A stretch of 64,000 nt of DNA from the NCBI GenBank assembly GCA_963695345.1, contig OY968769.1, forward strand, positions 288,001-352,000, given 5' to 3'. The notes beneath the pieces were generated by a model that saw only the letters and a list, made by a program, of their open reading frames with translations, was not told the DNA's origin and did not search any database. The translations under genes and the position numbers were made by a program. Of this stretch, positions 35,893 through 54,634 are shown in pieces. How positions within the stretch are numbered: the first letter of the stretch is position 1; each line of letters opens with the position of its first letter. Source of the DNA: an uncultured Methanomassiliicoccales archaeon (GTDB lineage: Archaea > Thermoplasmatota > Thermoplasmata > Methanomassiliicoccales > UBA472).

Positions 35893-35965
35893 GTGGGCGT
35901 AGTGTAGCTGGTTATCACTCGTGCTTGCCAAGCACGAGACTCGGGTTCGAATCCCGACGCCCGCA
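35893..35965 (+). tRNA. tRNA-Gly(GCC), no CCA encoded
   Basis: GTGGGCG/CGCCCGC acceptor, CGTGC-TTGCCAA-GCACG anticodon arm, TCGGG-TTCGAAT-CCCGA T-arm; TTTAAA box ~40 bp upstream. Confidence 0.95.
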
Positions 35966-36248
35966 CTCATTCTTCATCCAGTCAGACGGAACAATTTCTC
36001 AGAAAAAACGAATTCTTCAGAATCGAGATCTGCAAAAGCCTATTGTCTGAATCCTTTCAACGAATGCTTTCTTGATTCGAAGTTTGAGATGATGATCCAT
36101 TTACCTAATGAACAGGCAACCGAATGAGGACTAGAACAAGTAAGAAAAGAAAGATAATCACGGAAAGATTTTTCGGAAAGGGTTTACTCGATTCGGATGG
36201 TCTGGTACTCTTTGATTTTTCTTAGTCCTTCTTATTGTCTACCTTGAC

Positions 36249-38637
36249 CTACGTCTTGTCAGAGTTCTTCCCGGTCCGCAGGATGATGAAGATCAAGATG
36301 ATGATCGCCAGCATAATCGAGATACCGATGCCGATCACTGTGGTTGAGTCGATCCCGTTGGTCTTGCTCTGAAGGCCTCCGACATCTGACTTGACCTGGC
36401 CCATGTTGGTGCTAATGGTGGCCACGGTCCCGTTCATGCTGGTCACGTTTCCCTTGATGTTACCGAGGGTGCTGGTCATGTTCACATTGTCACCCTGGAG
36501 GGATACGACCTTCAACCAGATGTCAGACACGTTCGCCTTTACCAGGCCGGCATCGGTCTGGATCGATGGCGACGGTTCCGTTCAGGCTGTCGATTTTCGC
36601 GTGCAGGTTGGCCAGACTTACCTGGACCATGCCGAGCGTCGTGTTGACGGAGGCGAGGTTACCCTCGATGCCCAAAACTTTAGCGTGAATTGCGTTTACC
36701 GTTGTGTTGGTGAATCCCAGGTCGGTATGGATGGTCGCTACTGTTCCATCGATGCTGGTCACGATCGTGTGTATGTCGTTCACATTGGTGGTAAGCGTTC
36801 CCAGGTCGGTTTCGATCTGAACAACAATGCCGCTGATGCTCACCACTGACGCGTGAATTGCGTTCACCGTTACGTTGGTGTACCCAAGGTCGGTTTTGAT
36901 ATGAACGACTGCGCCGTTGATCGAGACAACGATCGCATGGATGTCGTCGACGGTCGTGGTAAGCGTTCCCAGGTCGGTATGGATGGTTGCCAGTGTTCCC
37001 TGGATGTCGATCACCCTGGCGTGGATATCGTTCACCGTTGCGTTGGTGTAGCCCAGGTCGGTCTGGATGGTCGCTACTGTTCCATAGATGCTGGTGACGA
37101 TTGCGTTTATGTCGTTGACATTCGCTACCAGGTCCTGGATGTGATGTCGGTGTACACCGTGGCATGGGGTAAGCGTACCCAGGTCGGTCTGGATGGTTGC
37201 CATTGTTCCCTGGATGTCGATCACCCTGGCATGGATGTCGTTCACCGTTGTGTTGGTGTAGCCCAGGTCGGTCTGGATGGTCGCTACCGTTCCATCGATG
37301 CTGGTCACGATCGCGTGTATGTCGTCGACATTCGCGGTAAGCGTACCAAGGTCGGTCTGGATGGTGAATATGCCATACTCAATGTATGCCAGTCCCTCGT
37401 CGATGGAGGTTATGCTCTCCTCGATGATGCCGATATCGGTTTGGATGGTGACAACGTTTCCGTTTATGCTCATTATCCGTGCATTCATACCGACCAGTGT
37501 GTCAGATATGACAAAGGTCCTGAGCGAGCTTCCATAGTTGGACCCGCTGTTGACCGACAATACCAGGGTGTACTGGCCGGCAGGAGCGTATCCAGGTATG
37601 GTCCAGTCGACAATCCACACACCCGAGGTGATCCTGTACATATCTCCAGACAGGTCGGTGGTGCTTAGATTGGGCGCGTACAGCATAGCGTTCATATTCG
37701 TCGGGTCGAACAGATGTCCGTTAACGGTCATCGACATCCACCAAGTGACGATCTCGCCGGGGAAATGTATCGTTCCGACGTCCATCACGATATCGATGGG
37801 GGTGGCATCTCCTGATGCAAAGTCCCCCATGGTCAATCCATTGAACGCATTACCAGGTGAGGGGAAGGTCGAGACGGCGTAGGCGTGGCCACGGATGTCG
37901 GCGGGGGTATTGATAATCCAGTCCGCGCCACCAATGGTAGGCGCAACAAGTCCTAGGAATGTTATTGAGGCCAGGGAGGTGCAGGAATGGAACGTAAAGT
38001 CCCCGATGGTGGTGACGCTGTTGGGGATGATGATGGAGGTCAGGGCGGAGCAGTAGATGAACGCATAGGCCCCGATGGTGGTGACGCTGTTGGGGATGTT
38101 GATGGAGGCCAGGGAGGTGCAGGAACGGAACGCGTCGACACCGATGGTGGTGATGCTGTTGGGGATGATGAAGGAGGTCAGGGAGGTGCATTGTTGGAAC
38201 GCAGAGGCAGGGATGGTAGTGACACCGTTGGGGATGTTGATGGAGGCCAGGGAGGTGCAGGAATGGAACGCACCGACACCGATGGTGGTGACGCCACTTC
38301 CTATGGTCACGGAGGTCAGGGCGGAGCAGGAGAGGAAAGCATAAGTTCCGATGGTAGTGACGCTGTCGGGAATCGTCACGGAGGTCAGAGAGGCATATTG
38401 GAACGCAGTGATAGCGATGGCTCTGGTGGGAAACCCTCCCAACGTGGATGGTATGACGATATCTCCGCCGGTGCCGGTGTATCCGGTGATGGTAGAGAAC
38501 CCTCCGTTCTCGGTGTAGATATAGTCGCCGTCCTGTGCCGCTGACACGTTATCCGCGGCAACGACGACGAAAGCGCCCAGCAACAGCATGATCACAATCA
38601 ATATCGTTATCCCAAATATTCCTGACCTCTTTTCCAT
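36249..38637 (-). CDS. Surface adhesin-like protein: signal/TM, BspA-type LRRs, Ig-like domain, 21-aa repeat stalk, C-terminal TM anchor (frameshift at ~36560)
   Basis: CxxLTSVTIPxSVTTIGxxAF repeats; TIQTDLG repeats; tail VIGIGISIMLAIIILIFIILRTGK. Confidence 0.88.
36560..37480 (-). repeat. Coding tandem repeat, 63-bp unit (alternating 126-bp A/B pairs)
   Basis: Recurrent cccaggtcggt(c/a)tggatggt every ~63 bp; encodes xxIxGTxATIQTDLGxxxxxVxxIHA. Confidence 0.85.
37965..38420 (-). repeat. Coding tandem repeat, 69-bp BspA LRR units (about 6-7)
   Basis: Recurrent ggaggtcagggaggtgcag / ccgatggtggtgacgctgttgggg. Confidence 0.85.
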
Positions 38638-39378
38638 ATTACAAAACCCCTTAGACAGTGTAGCTCGGTTCGAAACGAATGGATATAAAATAGAATTCTG
38701 TCTACCAATCTTCAAGAACGATATTAAAGCGGCCTGTCTTATTATCATTTATAAAAATGAATTCGCTAATATCTAAGCAGCTTCAAATTTCCATCCAACT
38801 TCATTTATAATTGTGCCGCATGATCCACATTAGCATTTACCCCCTAGCGAAGTAAGAGGGTTCTTGAATTTCCTCTAGAAGAACGTTGATGGCGGTGGTC
38901 ACTGATTTTACCAGAGTTAAGATTCTACTCTACCTTCATAATTTCTTTCTCTTACCTTGATAAAGAACCAATTGCATCGCGACAAACGCAATTGCGACAA
39001 TGCCAGGCTCCGTTTTAATTTCAAAGTTTGCGAGCCAGTTCAGTCAGCTTCATTTTTCCGTCCATCCTAAACACTGTCCGATCCATCATCGACCTGGCCC
39101 CCAATCTCTATAGAAGGCAATGGAGGGTTCGTTCCAGTCCAAACACCGGCCGACATGGTCATTTATTATTGGTTGGATATTTAGTGGTGGGCGCCTGATT
39201 AGTTAGAAATGATTGTAGAGGTTGCACTAAGAAGGGAGAATCTTGTATTCCCGATCAGGATGTTTTGCCCATCACACAATACTGAAGAGAAGCATAAATA
39301 TTAACTATTAGATATTATTGCAATATATTAAATAGATGTGGAGGCTAATGGAATGATCGACGGTAAGGAGTTTGCAAC

Positions 39379-39663
39379 ATGGATAATACCACCGAAGAAA
39401 AGGCAGGCGTTCCACAGAATGATAATTTGACCGCCAACCCAGCACCGTCGTCTGGTCTAAATACCGATGAGTCCTTGAGGGGGAAGAAACGCAAATCCAG
39501 TCATATCGACAATAAGACCGACGCCATTTTCCAAGACACCATGGTCGGACCAGTGCCCGTGAGCCCTAAGACCGAACAGGGAATGGGGGATTCGAAGGTC
39601 GGAGTCGTGGAAGCCGTCCAGAATACAAAAAAGCGAAATAAATGGAAATTTTGGAAGTCATAG
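39379..39663 (+). CDS. Small disordered hypothetical protein ending KKRNKWKFWKS
   Basis: GGAG RBS, AT-rich promoter-like region upstream; basic/aromatic tail. Confidence 0.6.
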   Translation: MDNTTEEKAGVPQNDNLTANPAPSSGLNTDESLRGKKRKSSHIDNKTDAIFQDTMVGPVPVSPKTEQGMGDSKVGVVEAVQNTKKRNKWKFWKS

Positions 39664-39845
39664 AGAGATTTCAAGCAGGAAATCTTAATGTCCCGTTCCT
39701 TGTTACCCAATACGCATTTCCAGACATATATTTTTCAAATTCAACTCTGAATTTTAGGGAATAAGTTGAACCCCAGTCTGCGCGGTCTTCTCCATAAATT
39801 GATTTTGTTATCAAAATGACAAATGATATATAAACTATTGACTAT

Positions 39846-40787
39846 TTGATAATGGAAATGGCCAACTCACCTTATGTCTTCACAAGTAGTCAACTTGAGG
39901 TATTTCGGGAGATCTGTTTAGGTAGAAAGACAGTAAGAGAAATAGCTCAATTTTCCGATCAATCGATCAAGACCGTCTATAGGATAACGGAAATTCTAAG
40001 GAATTCGGGGATTTTAACAGCATCTGGCAGCCATGGAGCCCATTTCACACCCAGCACGGATCTTCGTTCAGCTGCTTTGAAACGCTACCTGCTGTCGGAG
40101 AAGCATCCGGTCGACGCGATAACAGGGTCAAAATTGCTTCTGTTGCTTTCCATTTCTCAAATGCCAAAGAGCATCGATAGGATTTCCAAGGAAACGTGCC
40201 TTAAGTATGATACTGTTAGAGTCCTTGCGTGGGCCTTGAAGAACTATGGTGTAGTCACTCAGACCCGAGACGAAATCGTGATTTCACCGACCGCCGCATC
40301 CATAACCCAATTCCTACAGGATTTCTCTAAGGGCATGAATCTGAGAATAATGGAACAGAGGACAAAGGTTGGGATCTTGACCTGGAGCGGCGGTCTGGAG
40401 TGCATCTTCTCGACTAGGGCCCTTGACGACTCGAGCAATGTCAAAAAAACCGGAATTTCGGCCATGGGCAGTTATGGTCTACGTTTCATCACTGAAAATG
40501 ATTATTATTATTACTCAAATTGGAACTCGGACCTGAGACCGGAAGATATCGCCATCCACAATATACTCACAAACCCCTTCAGTTCCACGGTTATCGGTTA
40601 CTCGATACTGTTCCTCAAGAGGACAGGATTCGATAGCGACTACCTTTTGGAAGTGTCGAGGGACGCGGGAATCGAGGAATTGGTGAAGGATATGACCAGG
40701 GCCATGGCCGGAGAGGTCGTTAAGAATAAGTTCATACCGACACCTGACGACATGCGTGACCTATCCGCCCAATATGGGGTGAGTTGA
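39846..40787 (+). CDS. Tandem wHTH protein with C-terminal domain; putative antitoxin/regulator
   Basis: KTVREIAQ...TVYRITEILRNSGIL; second HTH KSIDRISKET; TGISAMGSYG; ATGA-type overlap with next gene. Confidence 0.75.
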   Translation: MIMEMANSPYVFTSSQLEVFREICLGRKTVREIAQFSDQSIKTVYRITEILRNSGILTASGSHGAHFTPSTDLRSAALKRYLLSEKHPVDAITGSKLLLLLSISQMPKSIDRISKETCLKYDTVRVLAWALKNYGVVTQTRDEIVISPTAASITQFLQDFSKGMNLRIMEQRTKVGILTWSGGLECIFSTRALDDSSNVKKTGISAMGSYGLRFITENDYYYYSNWNSDLRPEDIAIHNILTNPFSSTVIGYSILFLKRTGFDSDYLLEVSRDAGIEELVKDMTRAMAGEVVKNKFIPTPDDMRDLSAQYGVS

Positions 40788-41614
40788 TGGAAACGGCTCA
40801 ATTCGACAAGAACGATGTGCTATCGGTGATGGGTGCCGCCGGGAAGATATGTTCGCGGAGAATTGCTGTGTACATGGTCGGTGGTGGAGCTATGGCCATA
40901 CGAGGAGAGAAAGCAGCCACCAAAGATGTTGATCTGATCTTGGAATCTGAAGAAGATGCAAAGGAACTAAGCGAGGCGTTCAAGGGTTTAGATTTCGAGG
41001 TGAATTCCAGACATCCCATGGAATGCAGGGAATTGGTCGATGCTGAGATAATGACAACGATGAATGGGATGAGGGTCGATATTTTTGTCAGAACGGTCTG
41101 CCATAAATTGTTCTTCAGCGAGGGGATGAAAGGTCGTTCTGAATTGGTCGGGGAAATGGGCCAGATATCTCTAAATATCTGTTCACGAGAGGATATATTC
41201 CTTTTAAAGAGCGTAACAGAACGGAACAGGGATTTGGATGATATGGTAGTGCTATACCGCAAGGGCATTGACAAAGACACTATCATGAAAGAATGTCAAA
41301 TCCAAGATCTGCTCGATTCGCAGGTTGGAGGGAGGATATGGGAGGCGTTCCTTTCTATTAAAATCGAAGAAATGGAAGGAAGGTTTGGTATTACTATCCC
41401 ATGGAAAGGTGAATTGAAAAGGATAGCGGACCTCAAACTTGGATGTGTCTTGGTTTTGAATAAGATTAGAGCAGGGTCGCATACCGTTAATGCCATCTCG
41501 ATGGAGCTCGGAATTAAACCAGCAGATATCAGGAAATATGTTGCATCACTTGAAGATGAGGGATTGGTTGTTTCAGATCGAAGCAAAAGGCCAAATCAGA
41601 TTTCGCTCAGATAA
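40784..41614 (+). CDS. Pol-beta-fold nucleotidyltransferase (DUF6036/AbiEii-like) with C-terminal wHTH
   Basis: YMVGGGAMAIRG-KAATKDVDLI, DIFLLKSVTERNRDLDD; C-terminal TVNAISMELG...YVASLEDEGLV. Confidence 0.8.
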   Translation: MMETAQFDKNDVLSVMGAAGKICSRRIAVYMVGGGAMAIRGEKAATKDVDLILESEEDAKELSEAFKGLDFEVNSRHPMECRELVDAEIMTTMNGMRVDIFVRTVCHKLFFSEGMKGRSELVGEMGQISLNICSREDIFLLKSVTERNRDLDDMVVLYRKGIDKDTIMKECQIQDLLDSQVGGRIWEAFLSIKIEEMEGRFGITIPWKGELKRIADLKLGCVLVLNKIRAGSHTVNAISMELGIKPADIRKYVASLEDEGLVVSDRSKRPNQISLR

Positions 41615-41872
41615 TGCAATGTTAACGACAAAATACAATTGTTCAAAGGGGCAAGAGGTTCGAATCTCCTTGATCATACTTACCATAATTCTTGAGACCT
41701 TTGAATGGTTATCTGGAGTTCCAGGGTTTAAATCCTAAAGCACTCACTCTCAACCATATCCAAGCAGATAATTTCTAAATTCAATTTTGGGGGAAAATGC
41801 ACCTGGGTTGTCCGGGATAGTTTTCCATGCCCTGATCATCGTGTCTTGCCCTTTCAGACACCAGTAGATCTG

Positions 41873-42694
41873 TCAGATAGTGAGTGCTTTTTGCTTTTCG
41901 AACTTGCTATCCTTCTTTCCTACCCAGTAGTAGTTCGGTGTTTGGAACTTGGGCATGATCTTTTTTATCTTTTTATGTAAGGTTGCATAGTTGCCTTTGA
42001 ACTTGCCTTCATTCCAGACGATCTTCAGATTTGATGTGAACAGGCTATTCCTGACCCCTGCCCTGGATGTCTGCCAATCCTGGCATCCTGAGATCAACAA
42101 TATCGATGCCTTCACGTCCGCTTCTTTGATGTTTGAGGTTTCAGCCTGGATCCGATCATAGAATTCTTTGTTCTGTTCATAGACACCTTTCACCATCGAG
42201 TCAGGCATCGCCTTGGTTTGGAATTGAGGGGATGGCATACCTCCCTTTATTGAACGAACGATGTCGCCTTTGGTTACAGTCCCACTATGACAGCTGTCAG
42301 AAATGACAACGACCCGCACACCCTCGGCAAAGTTGGCATAACGGACCAGAAGTTCATCATCCATTATCTCCCCATCATAGAGACACCAGGTCTCGTCCTG
42401 CTCATCATCCTCATCCCCATTGACATCTGGCAACCAACTCCCATGGCCCGAGTAATAGACCGCGAAGATGTCACCGCTTTCCAGTTGGTTGGCGGCTATG
42501 GTCATCTCGTCTATCACCGATTGACGGGTGGCAGCCTCCGTAAGAAGGATCTTCACTTCGAACCCCTTAGATAAAGCAATATCGGCCATATCGTCGGCGT
42601 CCGATTCGCATGGAGTCAAGTATCCATCCCAGTCATTGTACTTGCCTGGATCTACTCTGTTCAGCCCGATTATCAGCGCTATTCCCTTAGGCAT
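41873..42694 (-). CDS. Metacaspase (peptidase C14), cytoplasmic
   Basis: ALIIGLN, DADDM, YYSGHG (His), DETWCLYD, ISDSCHSG (Cys), ISGCQDWQTS, SLFT. Confidence 0.93.
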   Translation of the reverse strand: MPKGIALIIGLNRVDPGKYNDWDGYLTPCESDADDMADIALSKGFEVKILLTEAATRQSVIDEMTIAANQLESGDIFAVYYSGHGSWLPDVNGDEDDEQDETWCLYDGEIMDDELLVRYANFAEGVRVVVISDSCHSGTVTKGDIVRSIKGGMPSPQFQTKAMPDSMVKGVYEQNKEFYDRIQAETSNIKEADVKASILLISGCQDWQTSRAGVRNSLFTSNLKIVWNEGKFKGNYATLHKKIKKIMPKFQTPNYYWVGKKDSKFEKQKALTI

Positions 42695-42993
42695 CTTATT
42701 CCCCCACTATTTTCGACCTGAGGTCATTATGACCGCGATAATTACATTCGCTATGTATGAATAAAATATTTTCCATGATTTGATTCAGTGGCGTATAGGA
42801 TTGAATGAGTTGAAAAACCTGGAATTGAACCTGAAGATGGAAGGTTATTGTAATAGGTTATTCGAATCCTTGTTGGATTCGTTCTAGAGGAGGGGCAAAG
42901 GCAGTGGGACGTTCATTGTCGAACACATCTGAAAACTCGCTTTAGGGTGACTTCATTAGGCTTTTTTCATAGCCTTTTCACTTAGTATCTCAT

Positions 42994-45520
42994 TCATTTT
43001 CCCCTGAAATCCAAGATCACCCCATCCTTCGCTCTCATGAAAAGGACAGGTGTGGCGAAGTCCCTTTTGTCTAGGCCTTCCTTTATGGAAATATAGTTCC
43101 TTGTCAATTGCACCGCCTCATCCACCGGTTTTGCCAGGGCAAGACTGCGATAGAATTTGTCAGCGAAGAGCTTGGATGTGGTATCCTTGACAGAATACTG
43201 CATGGCGATGATCGCTGGTATCCCTCTTTGCACAAGACGCGGGGCCATGCCCGTAAACACCTGACTGGATGATACTGTGGCCCCTTCGCAAGAATTGAGG
43301 ACCACCAGGCCCAGTCCTTCTTTTCCCAGGAATAGGTTGGCAAAGCGTTGGTCATCCAACAATATTGCGCGTTCGTGTTCATCCATCAAGGCGATCTGAC
43401 CCTTGTCGTCCTTGAATATGCCGTGTCCGATGAAGTGAAAGATGTTGTAGTGTTTCTCACTCAATTTTTGATCGATCTCGTCAATCGTTGCCTTGGTAAG
43501 CACATCGATCTCGATCTGGCCCGCATAGACATGACATTTCAGGGCCTCTTTGATCATTTTCTCCTCGGCGAGCGAATCGAGATGGGCCAGATCTTTCGGG
43601 CTGGATATGACCAAAAGAATCTTCAGAGGAAGGCTGGCAGGTTTGAGGTCCTTTCTTCTCAGGGGAATATCGATGTACCTCGAAAGGGTGGTCCTGGAGT
43701 CGTTGGCCAGGAATGTGTTTGTGCTGTCATCATACAGAAATTCCCAGGGAATGGCGGCTAGTTCCGGCTTTTCGAAGATTAGACGCAGGCGGACACCACA
43801 TCCGTTCTGGTCCGCTTCAACCTTCGTCGCCGCAAAGTGTCGTGAGAGTTTTACACCAAAGAGCGCGTTGAAAAGAGTACTTCCAACGTTCTTCAAAAGA
43901 TCCTCATTCGTCTTGTCAGCCAATATTAGCTGTAGGTTGGAATCAAAGACATCGCGATCCAGGCTCAATTCGCCATGGAGTTCCCCTTGATCCGACGATG
44001 CCAGAATGTCCCCGTCCTCTTGGACCCTAATCGATAGATCGCAATAATCGGTGTGGGTTGGCAGGGACCTGATGGAGGCCCTCTCAGATGTGCCTGGTAT
44101 GATCGTAGGGATTGGGTCTTCGTGCGTCGATTTCTCAGTTGGGCTGGGTGCAACTATTGTGGTAACCACAGCATCGGCTTTTTTCAGATCGTCATGACCG
44201 ATTTCAGGCAATTTTGATTTGTTGAAGCCACCTTCTGATGTGATGGGATTGATCGAAGGGTCAATGGTTTTTTGGTGATCCTTCCTGATTCGGGCCATTA
44301 TCTTGTTTCGAGAACCTGGAACGACAAAAAGAACTGCAACTCCGATCGTCACCAAAACGACCATCGCTACCAGCAAAATTTGAGCGATATCACCTCCTGA
44401 TGATATTCCCACTTCAATAACTGATGTCAGTGGACCTACTCCAGCCGAGCTCGCGGCTCTGACCTGATAGTAATATTTCTGACCAACGATAATGTTCTTG
44501 TCAACGTAATTTGTCCCAGAGACATTTGTAATCAATGAGAGTGAATCGGATGATGTCCCTCTGTACACTAAATAGGCGGTAATATTGCCACCGCCGGTGC
44601 TACTTGGTGCCGCCCAACTGAGGGTGACTTGAGAAGCGCCAGGAGTGGCGACAAGCCCTGTGGGAGCTCCAGGCATTAATGGAATGATCTCGCCCATCGT
44701 CAGTCCATTCCAGATTCCTCCGGGTCCAGGGAAATTCGATTGGCCATATGCATGGCCCATTAGCCCTGAAGAGGTATCAGATATCCAATCCATGCCAACA
44801 ATGGTGGGTGCAATGGATCCCAAGAAGGATAACGACACCAGGGAGGTGCATCGAAAGAAAGCATAGTCCTCGATGGTCATGACACTATCAGGGATGATCA
44901 CGGAGGTCAGGGAGGTGCAGGATTGGAAAGCGGAGACTCCCGATGGACGTAACGCTGTTGGGAATTGTCACGGAGGTCAGGGAGGTGCAGTAGTAGAACA
45001 CAGAATATCCGATGGAGGTGATGTTATTGGGAATTGTCACGGAGGTCAGGGAGGTGCATGCGGCGAATGCAGAGCTCCCGATGGACGTAACGCTGTTGGG
45101 AATTGTCACGGATGTTAAGGAGGGGCAGTAATTGAATGCGTAGTCCTTGATGGTCATGACACTATCGGGGATGATCACGGAGGTCAGTAGGTCGCAACCA
45201 TAGAACGAATAGCTCCCGATGGACATGACACTATTGGGAATTGTAACGGAGGTCAGGGAGGTGCGGTTACGGAAAGCACCATTATCGATAACCACGACCG
45301 TATACCCACCCAACGTTGAAGGAACAGTGATCGCTCCACCAGTGCCACCGTATCCTGTGATCGTAGCGACTGAGGGACTTCCACTTACTAGTGTAATGAG
45401 TATTCACCTTCCTGGTATGCTTCCGCGATACTTGGGATGACAATGGAGAGAGCACCCAGTAGCAAAACTAGCATGATGATGGCGGATATCCTATCAATCG
45501 CTGCCTTTTTTTCCGTTTAT
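42994..45520 (-). CDS. Receptor-like protein: signal peptide, BspA LRRs, FN3, TM, cytoplasmic CHAT protease (frameshifts at ~44935, ~45395, ~45510)
   Basis: IMLVLLLGALSIVIP-AEA; LRR units; PGAPTGL...YYYQVRA FN3; IAQILLVAMVVLVTIGVAVLFVV then RNKIMARIRK; LRLIF, IPWEFL, HFIGHG, VVLNSCEG, AMQY, FYRSL, FATPVLF. Confidence 0.85.
44830..45280 (-). repeat. Coding tandem repeat, 69-bp BspA LRR units (about 6-7)
   Basis: Recurrent ggaattgtcacggaggtcagggaggtgc. Confidence 0.85.
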
Positions 45521-45848
45521 GATCTCCCCCTTATTCCTCTCAATTCGTCAGATTGAGTGCTTAATAAATTTAGACTATCTGACAATATAAGGATTTGTCA
45601 TCTTCCTTATTAGGCCCCGCTGATTGTCCTCATGATCATTCTCAGTCAGCAGGTCAAGAATTGGAACTAAGAAATTCAAGCCAAATGTAAGAAAACTTCA
45701 AAAAGATATATATGAGCGCAAATGCTAGTAATTTTATATATTGTTTGGGATAGCTGTTCTCCGATATGAAAACGGCCAGAAAGGGATGATCTGGATAAGA
45801 TACCAATAGTAAAATTCTTCAGGGAATAGAGAGGAGTTGAGTAGGGGC

Positions 45849-47223
45849 ATGTGTTCGAAAGAAGGGCAATGGACAATAATGGTGTACATGGCAGGGGACA
45901 ACAATCTGGATGAGGCGGGTCTCCTCGATCTCGAGGAAATGAAGAAAGTAGGTTCATCAGATCAGGTAGAAATCGTTGTCCAGTTTGATTGCAGAGGGAA
46001 GGACAGTACGACATCCAGATACCACATAAGAAATGATACCGACCTGGACGATGATTTGATCCAGGAATTGGGACAAACTAACACGGGTGATCCTGAAGTG
46101 TTAGAAGAGTTCATAAGATGGGGTGTAGAAACATATCCATCCTCTCATTACATGCTTGTCCTATGGAACCACGGCAACGGATGGGATGATGATGTTGTAT
46201 TTCGGAGTCAAAAAATATCATCAGAAGAACCTGTCTATAGGTCAATCGTATCGAAGGTAGGGGAGACCCCAATATCGAAAGTAGAAGGGTTGTCAATATC
46301 AAAGGTAAAGGAAGCCCCATCGTTGTTTGGCAAGATGGATCTGGATATACGACGTGATCTGATAAAAAGTCGTTTCCATCGCAGCCTTTTCATTACCACG
46401 GTTGACCAGGCAGTCAAAACAAGAGCGATCCTCATAGATGATAATGCCAAGGACTTCCTGGATAACATCGAGATGAAGAACGTTCTCGAATCTGCTTGTG
46501 CGAGGATCGGGAAGAAGATCGATATCCTGGGAATGGATGCTTGCCTGATGAGCATGGTCGAAGTTGGATATCAGCTGAAAGATAGCGTTTCATTGACCGT
46601 TGGTTCACAGGAAGTGGAACCGGGAGCAGGGTGGCCTTACCAGCAGATCCTGCAGAGGCTTTCGGACAATCCATCAATGACGCCGGAGGAGCTGTCAAGC
46701 ACTATCGTTACCGAATACATCACCTCATTTGAAAATACTAAAAAGGATGTGACACAATCGGTCTTTGACCTGTCGAAGTCAGACGATCTCATCTCCGCTC
46801 TGGATCGATTTGTGGCTGCGGTGAATGACCATGTAAAAGATCCGGCAACGGCCAAGGATACGAAATCCGCTATTGTGAACGGTCGGGCAAGAGCTCAATC
46901 CTATGCTAGGTCTGATTATATCGATCTCTTTAATTTCTGTGAATTGGTAGGAAAGAATATCGATTCCGATGAGATGAAAGAGGCTTGTCAGTCGGTTATG
47001 GATGATCATTAGGCCAAGCGGATTCGTCGCCAGTTCTGGTTACTATGGAAAAGATGTCAAAGGATCGAACGGAGTGTCCATATATTTCCCCATGAAACAG
47101 ATGTCCGAGAAGGTATCCGAGCTGTATTCCGGACTAGATTTCGCCCAGATGTCGACCTGGATGAGCTTCATTATGGACTATCTCAGCGATTGGGAGAATG
47201 CCAAGGAATTGATACCAGCGTGA
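45849..47223 (+). CDS. Clostripain-family protease (peptidase C11), no signal peptide (frameshift at ~47005)
   Basis: WTIMVYMAGDNNL, NTGDP, VLWNHGNGW (His), GMDACLMS (Cys), GSQEVEPGAGWPY, YIDL, GVSIYFP. Confidence 0.92.
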
Positions 47224-47501
47224 GATGAAACCGGAATATCCCGCTCGTAACTCGAATAGAGCGGGACAATAGTTTTTCTAAGGGTGGAACTCGAGAAACA
47301 TGAATGATCGAGGACAGCGAGGGTTTCTGCCATATAAAAATGGGATCCTGATGTAATAAATCGGCCATACCATAAGGAGAACAACTGATGGTCGAGCAGA
47401 TCGATTTGGACTGAACCCGCCTTAGATTATGGATACCTTCTTATTATGGGAATTTGGCAAGCGTCTCTAAAATGTCCTTGGGACTTATTTCATAGGCTTT
47501 C

Positions 47502-48482
47502 TCATTGGTATGTAAGTTTAGTAGAGCTTGACCGCGGAAGTGGCAGCTCCCCTCTGCTCATGTGGTGTACCCAGGTGTCGAAGACATAGGACATGTGGAC
47601 AATGGTGTGATTTGTCTCCTTCACACAATCGCTATTGGTGATAGTCGATACACATTCATTTACCTCGCTCAACGACTGGAACATTCCATCGAATGTGACA
47701 AGGTCAGGAGCGTTGGAATAGTCCCATCCAGAGGTATACATGTGTCCACCATACTTGGACATCTGGTCGAAGAAACGATCTTTGGACGCTGGATCGTTCA
47801 GCCGGACATATGAGGCAAACCAGATATCGCCTGAAACACCTAGATAAAAATCGACCTCGTTTTCAATGAGGCCGTTCTTCAGCATGAAGTCAATTCTCTT
47901 CTTTATTGTCCTGGAGGAGATGCCGGTCTCCTGCGAAATCGAACGTATCGTCTTTCGACCATCTTCATTGAGCTGACGGATTATTTTCATGTCTGTGTTG
48001 GTGAGGTTATTCAGATTGCCATGAGAAGAGTTCTGGATGGTCTCTTTCCGATAACTGAATAAACCGCTACTTGACGATTTACATGACATGATACTGATTT
48101 TTGGATCGACGAGGTCCAGCCGCTCCATCAGAAAACTCATCACTTCCGCGATGTCCTCTTGCTCTCTGATGTCGACGTGACAAGCAACGTAGTTGTAAGC
48201 GCATTGGAGAACTCTACTGATGGATCCGTGGTCCATCAATCCCTTGATCACTTCCGAGGTCAGTTTAATCTTCGCTTGCCCATGGAAGAACACCCACTTC
48301 CCACCGAGAGCATCAAGGGAAAGGCGGTAACGGATCGATCTAATCCGACCACTATTGAAGAGGGACTCCACTCTCCTTTGGGCGGTCGGAACGGAGATAC
48401 ATAGTTGGTTGCTGATCTCTCGATATGTCAATCTTGGGTCACGTTGGAGCGAAATGATCAACTTCCTATCGAGCTCGTCCAC
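47502..48482 (-). CDS. Double-domain Lrp/AsnC transcription regulator
   Basis: DELDRKLIISLQRDPRLTYREIS and LTNTDMKIIRQLNEDGRKTIRSIS HTHs; GTG start after GAGGGG. Confidence 0.85.
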   Translation of the reverse strand: MDELDRKLIISLQRDPRLTYREISNQLCISVPTAQRRVESLFNSGRIRSIRYRLSLDALGGKWVFFHGQAKIKLTSEVIKGLMDHGSISRVLQCAYNYVACHVDIREQEDIAEVMSFLMERLDLVDPKISIMSCKSSSSGLFSYRKETIQNSSHGNLNNLTNTDMKIIRQLNEDGRKTIRSISQETGISSRTIKKRIDFMLKNGLIENEVDFYLGVSGDIWFASYVRLNDPASKDRFFDQMSKYGGHMYTSGWDYSNAPDLVTFDGMFQSLSEVNECVSTITNSDCVKETNHTIVHMSYVFDTWVHHMSRGELPLPRSSSTKLTYQ

Positions 48483-48876
48483 AGTACCCCTCCACTTTCT
48501 CCCCCAGTTCAATAATGTCTTGATCTAAATTTAATAGCTATTATCGATGGAAATATTTAATTAACGTTAACTATGTCATTTTCTCTAACTGGCATATATT
48601 ACAATGTCAATATTATTTCACGCTACCGATGCATGACGATTTAGTCAGATACCTCCAATTCTCTAAGTGTCCGGGTCATATCGGAACAAGGGGGAGTTGG
48701 AGAATGTGTTCATGGAGAGATGGAACGGAGGAGATAGGTAAGGCAACGGAACCGAAGGTCAATGGGTCAAAGAAGTATGCGATCGAAAAACCGGAAGAAA
48801 GCCCTAATTCGCGAATCCTCATCCTCGTCTCGAGGATGGAGGACCCAGATTCATTCGGAGCCGGTAAGGAGGAAGG

Positions 48877-49149
48877 ATGATGTATGGACCGATGGTGCCA
48901 CCATCCCGGCCAAGGAACCAATCACCGGAGCTTAGGCAATACGCGGCCAATGAATGGCGCTCCAATCCTTACCTGCTGGTCCTGGAAGCGGAACGGCTGG
49001 CAGAGGAAAAGAGGAAGGGAATAAAGCCGAAAGAAAGAGGCAGAACAAGCTTCTTCAAAAAATTCTTGACTTCATTGTTGAAGAGAATGTCAAAGAAACA
49101 ACATGAGAGTGAATCCGAATCGTTCATGGTTCGGCAGGGAAGAGAATGA
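48877..49149 (+). CDS. Small hypothetical protein
   Basis: Strong GGAGG RBS; 90-aa basic ORF. Confidence 0.55.
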   Translation: MMYGPMVPPSRPRNQSPELRQYAANEWRSNPYLLVLEAERLAEEKRKGIKPKERGRTSFFKKFLTSLLKRMSKKQHESESESFMVRQGRE

Positions 49150-49248
49150 TGATGATCTGATCGATCCCTTTTACAATGATATCCTCGAAAAGAATACTAC
49201 GAAATCAAGATCGGCCACATGACAATCGATCCCTATTCCAAAGTTCGT

Positions 49249-49707
49249 TCAATTGGTCTTACTCACTTGACTTTTGTCATATATCCTGGATCCATATAGC
49301 ATATAACCGATCCCTATCAGGACGAGGATGATCTCACCGACCGTAACGGCCAGCGGGGGAGCGACAGTGAAGAAGAATAGCGCCTGGTCTGCAGGTGCGG
49401 TGAGGAATAGCAGAGCAGCGTTAACCATCGCCAAAGCACCGGCGATCTTTGGTCTTCTGAATAAAGGTAGCAGCCCGGCAATCGGCATCAATAACCCAAT
49501 GACGATAAGGAACGCGGCGAATGCCAGGGTTCTCATCTCACTCATCCAGGTCTCGAATCCCAACGGGGTCAAGAGGAAGCCCAGAACAGTCCCGAACACG
49601 AAAAGGACTGCCAGGATCCGTTCCGACTTCCCCGAAGTCGTAATCTTATCATCTTTATGGCCATTTCTTTGGTCTCCCGTTGATTCAATTTCTTTGTTAT
49701 GGAGCAT
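49249..49707 (-). CDS. Four-TM membrane protein
   Basis: Four hydrophobic segments, LLTPLGFET. Confidence 0.7.
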   Translation of the reverse strand: MLHNKEIESTGDQRNGHKDDKITTSGKSERILAVLFVFGTVLGFLLTPLGFETWMSEMRTLAFAAFLIVIGLLMPIAGLLPLFRRPKIAGALAMVNAALLFLTAPADQALFFFTVAPPLAVTVGEIILVLIGIGYMLYGSRIYDKSQVSKTN

Positions 49708-50177
49708 GATTCAGTTGAACGAAAGTACGGCAACTTAGAGTAAATTGAATGGTATTGCCCATAACATAAATGCTTGTTGCTCGAACCTCATACTCTATCG
49801 AAGCCAGTATGTCGATTTCCTTGAGGAGGAGTATCCTAAATTACCCTTTATCGGCTATCTTTAGTACCTGTGTGGAGCGACCTGGAGTTCTAAAAGAATG
49901 ATGACAATAGACCGGAGGCAACGACATTAGCATTAATGATGTCAGGATTCAATTTCTCATACACAGTCATTCATTTTATTCCTGTTGCATAATATTGAGA
50001 ATAATGATATGAATGCAGCATCCAATGCGACCAATGATATCATCATATACTAAACCAGGATTCCGAATTATTAGTGTTGGATGTATCATCCAACTAGCAA
50101 TTCCAGAATATCAACTATCGATGGTGTTACATTTGAATGACAGCCGAGTAATAGAGACCAGGGTAGTAGTCAAGGAT

Positions 50178-50774
50178 ATGACCGCGAGTCCGGAAGCTTT
50201 AGGAGCGATGCTCCTTGGATGGTTGGCGATTCTGCTATCCCTCAGCTCTCTGAAGGTGTTCGCGCTGAGCGGTATGGTATTGGCGATGGTGTTCTTCGCT
50301 GGTTTCGGATTCCTTCTCGTCGCGTATATGGGATGGAAGAAAGGATCGCTGTTCACATTGTTCGCGTTCGGTGCAATAGCGATATTCTCCTGGTCCTTCG
50401 CGGCGCTCATGATAATGCCTCGGGTAGGTCTTTCCGAGCCACCGACCGTTAACGAGCTCGCATCGTTCATGATCATCTTCGCTTCATTGGTAGGGGTGCT
50501 CGCGTTGATCACCGTGAAGATGCCATGCCGTCTTCTGACCGTCACGGTGTTCTTCGCTTCCATCCTGTTCTTCCTCGTAGGGTTCCAGATATACACCCAA
50601 AACGAAACTGTCGCCATGGTATCTGGATGGTGGGGTCTGTTAGTCGGCGTCCTGGCCATGTATCTAGGTTCGGCGATGACATTGAACGACACCTATGGTC
50701 GCATGGCCGCCCCATTGATGATACGCATGCCAAAGGAGTCCAAGAAACAGGAGTTCGTCGAGGCAGGCAAGTAG
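50178..50774 (+). CDS. GPR1/FUN34/YaaH (SatP) acetate/succinate channel family, divergent
   Basis: ASPEALG approximates ANPAPLG; six TMs; SGWWG...AMYLGSA...NDTYGR. Confidence 0.75.
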   Translation: MTASPEALGAMLLGWLAILLSLSSLKVFALSGMVLAMVFFAGFGFLLVAYMGWKKGSLFTLFAFGAIAIFSWSFAALMIMPRVGLSEPPTVNELASFMIIFASLVGVLALITVKMPCRLLTVTVFFASILFFLVGFQIYTQNETVAMVSGWWGLLVGVLAMYLGSAMTLNDTYGRMAAPLMIRMPKESKKQEFVEAGK

Positions 50775-51238
50775 GACAGAATAACGGCAGGCAACCCCTT
50801 TTATTTTTTTTCAATTTAATTAATCAGCGAGATGGCCATCCTTGTTCTTCCTATCGATATTCGACTTCCATATGTCCGGCATCGCTTTGCATCTTCTAGC
50901 CTCATCCTTTCATGGACCGCTCGACCTGGTCGAGATTGTACGAGATCGATAGTACAGAGTGGTCGATATCCTATCCAGTAAGAAGGATAAAAGAACGGTA
51001 AAATCGCCTTTCTTGATCTGGCCTGATGTGAAACTAAGGCAGTTAGGAAAAAGCAGTTTGACCTCAGCCTTTGCCTGCCTGGTTGCGAGAGAGCTACATC
51101 ATGAAAAAGAGAAGTTGTGCCGTGTCCCATCATCCCGGAGACACGGCATTTCCGACCGTATGTCTAGTTTTCGATCCCCCATATTCGAGGAACGCTTTCA
51201 CGCTCATCTGTGAATGCTGCCCCTGATGCCCCTTCGGA

Positions 51239-54200
51239 TCAGACGACTCCGAAAAGCATCACGACTCCCAGGACCAACATTACCAGTCCTACGACGAGCC
51301 TGAGCTTGCTCCTCTTCTCCAGGCGCCATTCGTTGGCCTTCTCAGCCGAGACGCCCAGGTAGATTACCGCCAATATTATAGCCAGAGGCAGCACGAATAT
51401 CAGGTTGTACAAAGCCAGGTAGGGTATTCCCTGTTCCAGGGTCATGCTGTCCCCGACTAGGCTCAGTATCGCCAGGTATATGCCGCCGGTGCATGGAAGT
51501 TCGAATAGGCTTACCATCGCCCCGAGCACGACCGCCGCTGGGACGCTGGCCTTCTCTATGTACTTCTTTATGAGCGGCTTCCTCGATTCCGGGATCGCCA
51601 CCGTGGGCTTGTTTCCCGGGAAGAAGTAGTCCTTGATGTTTATGAGCCCTATTATGATCGACAGCACGGCGGCTCCATAGTAAACGTACCTCGTCATCGC
51701 CGTCGACTGCAGGAAGGTCAGCAGACCGACCCCGGCCATGAAATAGACGAGGAAGACCGTGACTATGTAGGCGATGCCGACCAGAAGCACCCTCCTCCTG
51801 TTACCGAGGCTTGTCAGGAAGAGCAGCAGGAATATCATGACGCTTATGGCGCAGGGGTTGATGCTGTCAACCGCTGCCGCGGCTATGACCATTCCGATGG
51901 TCAGGTCGGACGAGTACCCGCCCCGCGGCGTGGCGCTGATCGCTTCGGTCATCGTGCCATTCCCGGCGGTGCTGTAGCCGCACACCTGGTAGTAGTAGAC
52001 CTGGTCGTTGGTGAGCCCGGTGTCAGTGTATGCGGTGGAGGTAACGGTGGTTAGAAGTTTCATCGATTCCAGGCTGGTTCCGCGGAAGATCGCGTAGCCC
52101 AATAATGGATCCGAACCGTTGGTTGTCGGCTCGTTCCAGGACAGTGTCACCTGCCCTTTCGCCGCGGTGACGACAAGGTTCTGAGGGGCGAGAGGGGCGA
52201 TGAGCGTCCTGGCGGGAGTTGCGTTCACCTCGCCAGAACTCGGGCTTGGACCCTGCGCGTTCACCGCCCGCACGAAGTAGTAATAGGTCACCCCGTTGGT
52301 CAGGCCGGTATCGTTGTACCAGAGGACCGAACTGGCATTGGCCAGTAACTTCTCCGCACCTGAAGTCGTGCCCCTCCATACCTCATAGTTGGTGACGGCG
52401 CTTCCGCCATTCTCGACCGGAGGCAGCCAGGTCAAGTTGACATAGGCGTCGCCGAGACTGGTCTGGAGGTTGTGGATGGCGGTTGGCAAGGTGGCGGGAG
52501 TGGCATTGGCCTCGGTAGAATTCGGTCCGTTCCCGATCGAGTTGACCGCGTTCACCTTGTAGTAGTATATGTGACCGTTGGTCAGGCCGGTATCGTTGTA
52601 CCAGAGTTTATTTCCAGTATCAGCTAGGAGCGTTTCATTTCCTTGGTTCGTACCCCTCCATACCTTATAGTGGGTGATGGCGTTGCAGCCATTGCTGGCA
52701 GGTGCCTGCCAGGTCAAATTTATATAGGCATCGCCAAGGCTGGATTGGAAATTCTGAGGCGCGGTTGGCACAGTACCCGGAGTGGCGGAAAACTCGGCGG
52801 ATTTTTCCCCTTCCCCAACCGAGTTGACCGCGCTCACCTTGTAATAGTAGGTTTGGCAGTTGATCAGAGGTTGATCGACCAAGGTCAGTGTATTGCCCAA
52901 CGTGCGGTACAAGGCCTCGTTACCCGCTGTCGTTGACCGATAAATCTTGTATCCGGTGATCGAAGCCCCACCATTGTTGACCGGCACGGTCCAGTTCAGC
53001 ACTATTCGGCCGTTGCCGGCGGTGGCGGTCAGTGATTCGGGAGCGGTCGACACGGTCTTTACTCGACTGGGTGTTGCTGAGACCTCACTTGATGTTGGTC
53101 CGATTCCTTGGACATTCTCCGCTTTGACAGTATAGTAATAGGTCTGATCGTTTGTCACACCGGTATCGTTGAATTCGAGATTCGGATAGGCATCGGCCAG
53201 GTATGTCTCCGTTCCTGGAGAGGTACCCCTCCATACCCCATACTTGGTGATTGCGTTGCCGCCGTTGCTGGCAGGGGCATTCCAGGTCAAGACTATGTAG
53301 GCGTCTCCGGGACTTGCTTGGATGTTCTGGACGGCAGTTGGGGTCCCCAACGGTGTGGCCAGACCTTCGATGGACTTTACCCCTTCGCCCTTTGAGTTCA
53401 CCGCGCTGACCTTGTAGTAGTAGGTCGCGCCGTTCGTCAGGCCAGTGTTGTTGAAGGTTAGGACGTTCGATAGTGTCGCGATCGGGGTCGCTCCCTGCCC
53501 GCCTGAGGTTGTTCCACGGTACACTTTGTACCCGGTGATCGTGGCGCCTCCATTGTTGGCCGGTGCCGACCAGGTGAGAACGACATAGCCATTCTTGGCA
53601 TCTGCGACCAGGCTCTGAGGCTCGGTTGGAACCGTGGCTGGAGTGGAACTAAGCTCATTCGACTGAGGTCCATCACCTACGCCGTTCACCGCCCTGATCT
53701 TATAGTAATAAATCTGACCGTTAGTGAGTCCAGTATCGGTGTAGGTAAGGACGTTGCCGACGGTGTCGATGAGCACCTCACTCCCGGAGGCGACGCCACA
53801 GTATATCCTGTAATTGGTGATTGCGCTGCCACCGTTGCTACTGGGAGCAGTCCAGACCAATACGACCTGGGCGTTCCCTGACGTTGCGGAGGTTAGAACG
53901 GGAGCCGCTGGCAATGTGACCGGAGTGGCCGAGTCTTCGATGGACCTCGTCCCATCTCCCTTAATATTCACCGCGCAGACCTTGTAGTAATAGGTCACGC
54001 CGTTCGTCCTACCGGTGTCGGTATAGGTAAGGACGATGCCCAATGTCGCGATCGGGGTTACCCCCTCGCCGCCGGGTGTTGTTCCACGATAGACCTTGTA
54101 CCCGGTGATCGTGGCGCCCCCATCATTGGTCGGTGCCGACCAGGTAAGAACGATATTCCCGTTCCCGGCATTCGCGGACAGGTTCTGGGGTGCAGAGGGC

Positions 54201-54634
54201 GCGACGGCATTGATCAATTGAACTATGTATGCTTCCAGATCATCCTGTATGGGACCGTCGCCAATAAACGCCCGCTCGTTCTCTATGAAAGCCGTAGGAG
54301 TAATACTGGTCCCGGTGTGGAAAGCAGCATTGAAATCAAGGAAAAGATAGTAATTTGTGGTGTTATGGGCTATTTCCAATTTATAAAAAGTAACTTCAGG
54401 ATATTCTAGGATGAGAGCATCCATCCACGGTTCTAGGGCTGCGCAGTGCGAGCAACCGATGGCCCAGAAGTAGTATACGACGACACCGCTTTCTCCATCC
54501 CCCAGAGTAGTGGAGCTTATGGAGGCGTTCGTCACATTGTCTTCGATCTGTGTGACGGTGAGCTTGCTGCCTCCTTGACCGGCAAGACCGGTAACGAATG
54601 CCAGTGAAAGCACCAGCGTCAATGCGATGACCAA
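51239..54634 (-). CDS. Thioredoxin/glutaredoxin (CSHC) - 8x FN3 - CcdA/DsbD-type transmembrane domain
   Basis: Signal peptide; YFWAIGCSHC...ITPTAFI; eight FN3 units (LxWxxP...YYYxVxAxN); DSINPCA and FELPCTGGIY...YNLIFVLP. Confidence 0.88.
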   Translation of the reverse strand: MVIALTLVLSLAFVTGLAGQGGSKLTVTQIEDNVTNASISSTTLGDGESGVVVYYFWAIGCSHCAALEPWMDALILEYPEVTFYKLEIAHNTTNYYLFLDFNAAFHTGTSITPTAFIENERAFIGDGPIQDDLEAYIVQLINAVAPSAPQNLSANAGNGNIVLTWSAPTNDGGATITGYKVYRGTTPGGEGVTPIATLGIVLTYTDTGRTNGVTYYYKVCAVNIKGDGTRSIEDSATPVTLPAAPVLTSATSGNAQVVLVWTAPSSNGGSAITNYRIYCGVASGSEVLIDTVGNVLTYTDTGLTNGQIYYYKIRAVNGVGDGPQSNELSSTPATVPTEPQSLVADAKNGYVVLTWSAPANNGGATITGYKVYRGTTSGGQGATPIATLSNVLTFNNTGLTNGATYYYKVSAVNSKGEGVKSIEGLATPLGTPTAVQNIQASPGDAYIVLTWNAPASNGGNAITKYGVWRGTSPGTETYLADAYPNLEFNDTGVTNDQTYYYTVKAENVQGIGPTSSEVSATPSRVKTVSTAPESLTATAGNGRIVLNWTVPVNNGGASITGYKIYRSTTAGNEALYRTLGNTLTLVDQPLINCQTYYYKVSAVNSVGEGEKSAEFSATPGTVPTAPQNFQSSLGDAYINLTWQAPASNGCNAITHYKVWRGTNQGNETLLADTGNKLWYNDTGLTNGHIYYYKVNAVNSIGNGPNSTEANATPATLPTAIHNLQTSLGDAYVNLTWLPPVENGGSAVTNYEVWRGTTSGAEKLLANASSVLWYNDTGLTNGVTYYYFVRAVNAQGPSPSSGEVNATPARTLIAPLAPQNLVVTAAKGQVTLSWNEPTTNGSDPLLGYAIFRGTSLESMKLLTTVTSTAYTDTGLTNDQVYYYQVCGYSTAGNGTMTEAISATPRGGYSSDLTIGMVIAAAAVDSINPCAISVMIFLLLFLTSLGNRRRVLLVGIAYIVTVFLVYFMAGVGLLTFLQSTAMTRYVYYGAAVLSIIIGLINIKDYFFPGNKPTVAIPESRKPLIKKYIEKASVPAAVVLGAMVSLFELPCTGGIYLAILSLVGDSMTLEQGIPYLALYNLIFVLPLAIILAVIYLGVSAEKANEWRLEKRSKLRLVVGLVMLVLGVVMLFGVV

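Follow-up and report, generated by a model that had tools for sequence, protein, structure and literature searches.

A predicted single-pass archaeal protein with a leucine-rich repeat ectodomain and a CHAT protease domain

Does an uncultured Methanomassiliicoccales archaeon possess a receptor that couples an ectodomain of leucine-rich repeats (LRRs) and a fibronectin type III (FN3) domain to a protease inside the cell? The question is raised by a minus-strand gene at positions 42994-45520 of a 64,000-nt stretch of its genome (the window; assembly GCA_963695345.1, contig OY968769.1, positions 288,001 to 352,000), for which a preliminary description had proposed a Toll-like-receptor-like architecture with a single transmembrane (TM) helix and a cytoplasmic CHAT protease. 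To our knowledge, the known prokaryotic CHAT and caspase-like immune proteases respond to internal signals: Craspase to target RNA, SAVED-CHAT to cyclic nucleotides, and others to TIR products. A CHAT domain behind a single-pass ectodomain would, if real, take its signal from outside, as Toll-like receptors and the death receptors of animals do, and carry it into a protease cascade. The reading we prefer, tentatively and with slightly less than even confidence, is that the gene is real and probably intact, that its product is a type I protein joining a receptor chassis native to the genus to a foreign CHAT cassette, and that this protein would serve as an outside-in sensor protease.

Layout and topology of the predicted protein

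Feature coordinates are collected in Table 1; residue numbers refer to the 657-aa stop-to-stop frame 42994-44967 (635 residues from a GTG), and the genome carrying the window is denoted G000. Within this single frame Pfam recognized an LRR_5 fragment (residues 12-48, 7.7e-08), an fn3 domain (101-185) and CHAT (361-623), whilst the full LRR_5 block (2e-41) lies in the upstream frame 44888-45403. The linker region is free of stops over 88 codons in frame 0, and the other two frames hold three and five stops. Since three Pfam domains above their curated cut-offs share one 657-codon frame with a stop-free linker, the layout is not a product of chance. The earlier proposal that the last LRR, FN3, TM helix and CHAT lie in one frame was therefore upheld, as were the signal peptide, the capped LRRs (of which we count seven) and the one FN3 domain, all within a few bases of where Pfam and the translations place them, together with the single TM helix and its positive-inside stretch, the Pro/Thr-rich linker and the full CHAT module.

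The residues flanking the TM helix are acidic (E, D) on the N-terminal side and read SRNKIMARIRKDHQK, with a charge of +6, on the C-terminal side. The signal peptide, an ectodomain belonging to a surface-protein family of the host, the positive-inside tail and a homologue from a sister species in which the same TM helix and tail precede a cytoplasmic kinase together support a predicted topology with CHAT inside and LRR-FN3 outside. At the N-terminus the signal peptide aligns by eye with those of protein P0057 and of a paralog in the window (36523-38748), and the neighbouring C14 peptidase gene has a GGGGGA motif 5 nt before its ATG, comparable to the one listed for the target in Table 1. Once two to three probable assembly indels and the ATA are read through, the locus is best explained as a single gene for a type I membrane protein with a length of ~840 residues.

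The CHAT domain (PF12770, clan CD) scored 107.5 bits (cut-off 24, E 1.1e-30; 110 bits in the genome-wide family search) and retains the catalytic dyad of the family as H515 and C560. AlphaFold2 modelled residues 303-657 with a pLDDT of about 90, and Foldseek returned SAVED-CHAT (8tl0), separase (5fc3), Csx29 (7zoq) and DdvA (8rot), and also 8eey, with probability 1.0. The best structural match was the activated SAVED-CHAT filament, followed by separase, Csx29 and DdvA (rank 12); TM-scores stayed low, at 0.26-0.37, since only half of the model is structured. By its motifs and modelled fold the domain is predicted to be a complete caspase-fold protease with an active site.

A native chassis and a foreign protease cassette

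The ectodomain-TM part is 41-54% identical to paralogs in G000 and its relatives, and has what characterizes the BspA-LRR/FN3 surface proteins, that is, a signal peptide, capped LRR_5 units, FN3 and a C-terminal TM helix with a basic tail. In 40 relatives all matches listed to the whole protein fall within residues 1-232; a protein atlas search returned LRR clusters alone (scores 0.77-0.78) and was uninformative. As judged from the paralogs and relatives, the ectodomain-TM-juxtamembrane part represents a native receptor chassis of the genus of this methanogen (G000 encodes McrA, hence the designation), in which it forms a large paralog family. The target departs from the family beyond the membrane: in every paralog followed to its C-terminus the TM helix has a tail of just 4-12 mostly basic residues, whilst the target continues for 434 more residues, and the sole other exception seen is a kinase fusion in G005, a sister species of the same genus. 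One family member in the window, the 741-aa LRR_5 protein encoded at 36523-38748 (minus strand), contains ~22-residue repeats (…GTVATIQTDLG…) in a long series and ends abruptly; it is encoded within the island, close to the tRNA-Gly edge, and its C-terminus may be broken too.

The kinase fusion is a 1891-aa open reading frame (ORF) on the minus strand (G005:C5:~265631-271300; L010 + L094) that contains LRR_5, several FN3 domains, a TM helix, the motif RYRRNKAEARSRKD, a linker and Pkinase (5.4e-34), the fused form being present in one of the 40 relatives. Its FN3-TM-tail region is 41% identical to residues 99-230 of the target, through SRNKIMARIRKD and beyond a TAATG that lies in the juxtamembrane stretch, with ...MARIRKD in the frame-0 tail of the target set against ...EARSRKD in the receptor kinase. 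The G005 protein amounts to an archaeal LRR receptor-like Ser/Thr kinase, and related 546-aa kinases occur in G005 and in G007, a complete genome of the same genus.

The closest sequences to the CHAT cassette come from elsewhere: identity is 66-73% to metagenome proteins and 57-62% to cyanobacteria and an Anaerolineae metagenome-assembled genome. Within the same order a relative was found in one of 150 other genomes (27% identity) and in the phylum sample in two of 400 (31%), so that none of ~550 other genomes of the phylum holds a relative above 31%. This pattern, together with the position of the gene in an island at tRNA-Gly, identifies the cassette as a horizontally acquired, mobile and highly conserved putative effector. 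Its partners elsewhere comprise TPR, Roc-COR-LRR, AAA/STAND-like and effector-associated domains, and also a TM helix with an ectodomain. The earlier remark that CHAT is usually controlled by cytoplasmic TPR or STAND domains needs correcting: such partners occur but are not exclusive, as one TM helix with an outside domain is found in 8/59 close relatives and 16/51 loci.

These membrane-bound relatives form a real class that is common among the relatives of the target. In the eight of 59 motif-bearing close CHAT relatives that combine CHAT, a linker, one TM helix and an outside domain, the latter, where read (P0008, P0009, P0016) or annotated by Pfam, is CarboxypepD_reg. Of the 16 loci (of 51) with CHAT, linker, one TM helix and a C-terminal domain, ten were scanned, and seven of these carry PQQ, Kelch, Vgb-lyase/NHL-like or Sortilin/BNR propellers. 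All 24 proteins have CHAT first and lack a signal peptide, with basic residues before the TM helix in those read, which places CHAT inside and the propeller outside. The bacterial proteins (P0008-P0016, L022-L079) share with the target a cytoplasmic CHAT, a disordered linker, one TM helix and extracytoplasmic repeats. They differ in type II polarity and in beta-propeller or beta-sandwich ectodomains, whereas the target is type I with a signal peptide and LRR-FN3. In the target, too, CHAT and an extracytoplasmic repeat domain are separated by a linker and one TM helix, but CHAT does not occupy the N-terminus (N-in, C-out), and this is the sole type I order seen. The target is an archaeal variant, in inverted order, of the single-pass CHAT proteins, a widespread class that is undescribed as far as we found: no published account was found of a single-pass protein with an ectodomain outside and CHAT in the cytoplasm, though supplementary architecture lists (e.g. 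PMC8195603) may hold such proteins.

Comparison with characterized systems helps to delimit what the target is. In type III-B CRISPR-CBASS loci, SAVED-CHAT is activated by ligand-induced oligomerization and cleaves and activates a neighbouring PCaspase, leading to abortive infection, according to the parts of the report consulted (Steens et al., bioRxiv 10.1101/2023.06.23.546230). Foldseek aligns its CHAT (8tl0), the best structural match of the target domain, at ~20% identity; the CHAT part is also recognized by the PADLOC SAVED_CHAT model (9e-13, model positions 92-253 to residues 430-615), and at the target locus too a C14 gene adjoins the CHAT gene. The target differs in having no SAVED domain by Pfam, in that its sensor would be an extracellular LRR-FN3 part acting across the membrane, and in the additional C11 protease of its locus. 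No source of cyclic oligoadenylate was seen; in the window Rfam gave the tRNA alone, and no search for cas10 or CD-NTase was made.

DdvA (8rot) is, in the sections consulted, a dimeric single-pass transmembrane anti-sigma factor with a periplasmic TPR-CHAT, for which signal-induced proteolysis is proposed (PMC11506125). It resembles the target as a single-pass protein with CHAT joined to the TM helix by a flexible linker. The DdvA CHAT is itself the sensor, is periplasmic and has an incomplete active site, with a cytoplasmic N-terminal zinc anti-sigma domain on the other side, whereas the target CHAT is predicted to be cytoplasmic and complete, and its N-terminus consists of a signal peptide and LRRs without TPR. 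Cyanobacterial C14-CHASE2 and C14-ANF-receptor fusions (PMC2853523) and an EACC2-caspase with CHASE2 and TM helices (PMC8195603), as far as those sources were consulted, likewise have TM helices and a sensory domain outside the cell attached to a protease of caspase fold, but they are bacterial C14 or other caspases with multi-helix modules rather than an archaeal CHAT with a single-pass LRR-FN3 part.

With eukaryotic LRR receptor kinases and Toll-like receptors and with the G005 kinase the target shares an LRR ectodomain, one TM helix and a cytoplasmic signalling domain. The proposed Toll-like-receptor-like architecture holds to this extent, including the division into inside and outside parts, but not beyond it: in place of a cytoplasmic TIR, Pfam gives CHAT alone, the output would be a protease rather than a kinase or TIR, the LRRs are of the BspA/LRR_5 class and not of the class typical for Toll-like receptors, and the cytoplasmic parts are non-homologous. 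The target is not a member of the Toll-like receptor, SAVED-CHAT or DdvA families, and its resemblance to Toll-like receptors is architectural only.

Gene integrity and alternative explanations

The preliminary description had noted about three indels in the 5' part and an ATA at the start, all of which we recovered (Table 1), and had cautioned that the gene may be decaying. The more likely cause is an indel-ridden assembly. G000 is a single contig of 2.56 Mb with a CheckM marker completeness of 85%. We took 400 kb of G007 as a reference and called 263 ORFs of at least 250 aa, of which 156 matched in G000 at 60% identity or more (100 in a single piece, 38 frame-split and 18 otherwise partial). 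After removal of overlaps, at least one frame switch was found in 29 of 131 conserved loci, giving 45 switches in 158 kb (0.28 per kb). Affected genes include a class I aminoacyl-tRNA synthetase (three switches, with the pieces at 80-96% identity), TruD (three), a NiFe hydrogenase subunit (two), an XPD-like helicase (two) and the H+-pyrophosphatase (one); examples of such regions are G000:C1:2446355-2450575, 1922445-1923754 and 2466303-2468280. As the organism could not live with those essential genes broken, the breaks point to the assembly, and with about a fifth of its genes broken, apparent pseudogenes in G000 should not be taken as decay. The switches cluster, reaching a local density of ~2 per kb, and the C11 gene 300 nt from the target is frame-split as well. 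We regard assembly error as the probable cause of the 5' breaks, by about two chances in three.

Two other causes were considered and discarded. Homopolymer sequencing error fails as a general cause, because none of 24 well-placed switches elsewhere adjoins a run of at least five, and here break 3 alone lies in one; pyrrolysine read-through of the TAG at 45388-45390 is ruled out by the TAA directly after it. Public sequencing comprises two DNA runs with small shares (0.07, 0.05), no RNA run being listed. Near-identical 151-nt read contigs cover 43019-43169 and 43248-43398 (X1) and 44421-44571 and 44567-44717 (X2); the remaining read pieces are partial LRR look-alikes with loose ends, and the break sites, the TM-linker junction and the start lie outside them.

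Several observations weigh against an intact receptor. Three lesions and a non-canonical start fall within 0.6 kb, where 0.72 per 2.5 kb would be expected (P(>=3) = 0.036), and genuine decay of the 5' part keeps a real minority share of the probability. No intact homologue with the LRR/FN3-TM-CHAT architecture was returned by database, metagenome or collected-protein searches: LRR/FN3 and CHAT occur together in none of the 120 hits listed among 5.8 billion clusters (lengths 361-1150 aa), in none of 27 metagenome loci and in none of 277 collected proteins, and among the best 150 of 1.84 billion representatives all CHAT matches cover residues 295-655 only (P0253, with two matching stretches, reads from its sequence as a double CHAT). 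Because the architecture is a singleton, conservation does not demonstrate selection for the fusion. A TAATG at 44296-44300, six codons past the TM helix, could be the relic of a stop/start overlap between two once separate genes. Finally, the C14-C11-CHAT gene trio described below was found in a single bacterial lineage (L068, L070, L079), most loci being too short.

The alternative that survives best, which we consider unlikely although it deserves serious weight, is a recent neutral or decaying fusion in which a foreign CHAT entered a variable island downstream of a surface-protein gene and was joined with it in one frame; the 5' part would be truly broken, no receptor would be made, and the only product, if any, would be a soluble CHAT, truncated or started internally. 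The singleton architecture, the strain-specific island, the ATA, the putative relic past the TM helix and a lesion count above the genome-wide rate all fit this account. They are offset by the state of the assembly, in which essential genes are broken at the rates given above and the adjoining C11 is broken too, so that the lesions need not be real, and by the 3' part of the gene itself, where the 1.97-kb frame, the dyad and the 88-codon linker are intact and CHAT is still 57-73% identical to its homologues.

Alternatively, the fusion could be real but serve as a tether rather than a sensor, the TM helix and ectodomain placing CHAT at the membrane, or CHAT processing or releasing its own protein; the protease would then be controlled from inside the cell and LRR-FN3 would keep an adhesin role. 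The ectodomain is indeed one ordinary member among many adhesin-like paralogs, and the portions of the DdvA report consulted describe a CHAT adjoining the flexible linker of a TM protein, with self-cleavage proposed. We nevertheless think this quite improbable, since the ectodomains of bacterial TM-CHAT proteins are diverse ligand-binding propellers, as expected of sensors, and the same chassis carries a kinase, a signalling output, in G005.

Repeat-driven misassembly is rejected as unlikely, since no second copy of region 42900-44590 occurs in the genome and no paralog is more than 76% identical to the LRR part. A separate CHAT start within the linker was rejected as unlikely, as no ribosome-binding site (RBS) was found before any in-frame ATG, GTG or TTG over residues 198-267; the first Met of at least 14 homologues coincides exactly with T306 (ACC). 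The TAATG would read as a stop/start overlap if one indel lay just before it. A surface protein ending after its TM helix and a separate CHAT starting at the ATG of this TAATG (M224), joined by one indel error, would suit the frequent indels of this assembly, the classic form of the overlap with short T and A runs just upstream, the ends of most paralogs 4-12 residues after the TM helix and the existence of ~435-aa CHAT proteins with an ~85-aa N-terminal extension (P0017, P0040, P0213). It is very unlikely, however, because the alignment with the G005 kinase tail, which itself runs into a long cytoplasmic part, continues past TAATG and shows frame 0 there to be the surface protein's own frame, because M224 lacks an RBS, unlike neighbouring genes, because the error must have hit a ~20-nt window, and because the TM-CHAT relatives likewise have a disordered linker beside the TM helix.

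Protease neighbours, a possible mechanism and the surrounding island

The target gene lies between two other predicted proteases (Table 1) in a small island of clan-CD proteases that four same-genus genomes lack. DNA synteny with these genomes (86-90%) stops exactly at tRNA-Gly (35966) and resumes near 51.2 kb, elsewhere in those genomes, the island having no orthologous DNA in any of the four. The genome has 56% GC; in 2-kb windows over 36001-52000 the value drops to 0.46-0.52, and the genes of the island range from 0.44 to 0.56. The C14 product is a candidate substrate or second protease. In the C11 gene the C-terminal piece lies in ORF 47002-47223, as judged by comparison with the C-terminus of the C11 of metagenome locus L079.

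Similar neighbourhoods recur in bacteria. In metagenome loci L070 and L079, C14 and C11 genes 45-47% and 39-40% identical to ours stand beside a CHAT-TM-PQQ gene, and these clusters also hold Endonuclease_NS and an LCAT-like hydrolase; L068 has C11 with CHAT-TM, and in L035 and L036 a C14 lies directly upstream of CHAT (27% identity). Overall C14 was present in four of 52 loci and C11 in three, many loci being too short to tell. G000 itself has a second C14-CHAT pair at G000:C1:113100-115310 (L087), in which the C14, 70% identical to the island copy and apparently broken N-terminally, lies 40 nt upstream of a soluble CHAT of 464 aa, the only other CHAT gene of this genome; in G007 no C14 gene was present within 3.5 kb of the orthologous CHAT. 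As an observation in its own right, the L079 (1160-8079) and L070 cluster of LCAT-like hydrolase, C14, C11, Endonuclease_NS and CHAT-TM-PQQ, to which L079 adds a second CHAT, has the appearance of a defence or conflict system that includes a transmembrane sensor protease.

Under the preferred reading of an intact sensor protease, an extracellular ligand, such as a virus particle, a neighbouring cell surface or a polymer, would bind the LRR-FN3 part and gather the tethered CHAT domains, which by analogy with SAVED-CHAT could activate them. Activated CHAT might then cleave the C14 and/or C11 products, or its own tether, and so start a proteolytic cascade for defence or cell suicide. Activation by clustering, already suggested in the preliminary description, is made more plausible by the oligomerization and C14 cleavage described in the consulted parts of the SAVED-CHAT report, by the C14 gene 299 nt downstream of the target and by the bacterial TM-CHAT proteins with the same C14 and C11 neighbours. 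A gasdermin-type substrate was not found by family match among island ORFs of suitable size, the unassigned ORFs not having been folded.

A broader extension, which we put forward as speculative and on balance doubtful, is that such proteins form a prokaryotic 'extrinsic', death-receptor-like pathway in which variable ectodomains detect outside targets and the tethered CHAT initiates neighbouring C14 and C11 proteases, the archaeal version being a bacterial CHAT cassette grafted onto a native chassis that bears a kinase in a sister species. The ectodomains would be LRR-FN3 here and PQQ, Kelch, NHL and BNR propellers or CarboxypepD_reg sandwiches in bacteria, the targets would be virus particles or foreign cell surfaces, and the bacterial loci would add lipase and nuclease effectors. 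The locus also illustrates how receptors can arise, with a modular archaeal LRR-FN3-TM chassis whose cytoplasmic output differs between species, a kinase in G005 and a foreign protease in G000, and the bacterial CHAT-TM-propeller genes with the same C14 and C11 neighbours offer a broader and more tractable experimental set.

Table 1. Positions in the window of the target gene, its parts and frame breaks, the island and the adjoining protease genes. Pfam values are E-values.
Feature	Position	Strand	Remarks
GGGGGA RBS-like motif	45525..45530	-	From sequence; 4 nt before the start position
ATA where a start codon is expected	45518..45520	-	M-N-G-K-K..., cf. MNERTG of P0057
A7 run, frame break 3	45506..45512	-	One surplus base with respect to the signal-peptide frame
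Signal peptide	45404..45516	-	KK..R n-region, hydrophobic core SAIIMLVLLLGALSIVI, AEA cleavage motif; frame 45388-45516
Frame break 1	45391..45403	-	One-base shift between signal-peptide and LRR frames; open-frame overlap
Seven BspA-type LRR units (LRR_5) and C-terminal cap	44677..45330	-	Pfam 2e-41, 7.7e-08; repeats read in translations
Frame break 2	44935..44936	-	Extra base in ...ATC GGG AGT c TCC GCT TTC...; LRR repeat register
Fibronectin type III domain	44410..44676	-	Pfam fn3 4.3e-08, residues 101-185
Single TM helix	44317..44388	-	Residues 194-217; Kyte-Doolittle peak 3.2; AlphaFold2 helix 194-208
Basic juxtamembrane motif SRNKIMARIRKD	44278..44313	-	Positive-inside; contains TAATG 44296-44300; homologous motif in the G005 receptor kinase, RYRRNKAEARSRKD
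Disordered Pro/Thr/Ser/Glu/Lys-rich linker, predicted cytoplasmic	44053..44277	-	~75 residues; AlphaFold2 pLDDT <50 over 205-302; unique in genome
CHAT protease cassette	42997..44052	-	Residues 306-657; stop codon 42994-42996
Predicted catalytic His515 (HFIGHG)	43423..43425	-	Motif as in homologues
Predicted catalytic Cys560 (NSCEG)	43288..43290	-	Motif as in homologues
Strain-specific island	35969..51237		Beside tRNA-Gly 35893-35966; ~15 kb
Peptidase C14 (orthocaspase, 273 aa)	41873..42694	-	299 nt downstream, same strand; Pfam 8.3e-22; PDB 3bij 5.7e-85
Peptidase C11 (clostripain family)	45837..47223	+	Divergent, upstream; Pfam 1.7e-53; frame broken near 47002-47012

Other genes in and beside the island were noted in passing. 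At 51239-54634 (minus strand) a 1131-aa ORF that begins like a thioredoxin, continues with eight FN3 domains and ends in a polytopic membrane domain (SfLAP/Peptidase_M50B-like matches) represents another surface protein with an unusual membrane module. Overlapping genes at 39846-41614 (plus strand), within the island, encode a 313-aa winged-helix protein (HVO_2833_C) and a 276-aa DUF6036 nucleotidyltransferase with a C-terminal HTH and a weak AbiEii match, a pair that may be an AbiE-like toxin-antitoxin system. The island also contains, at 47502-48512 (minus strand), a 336-aa protein with two AsnC/HTH_24-type winged-helix domains, which may be a regulator.

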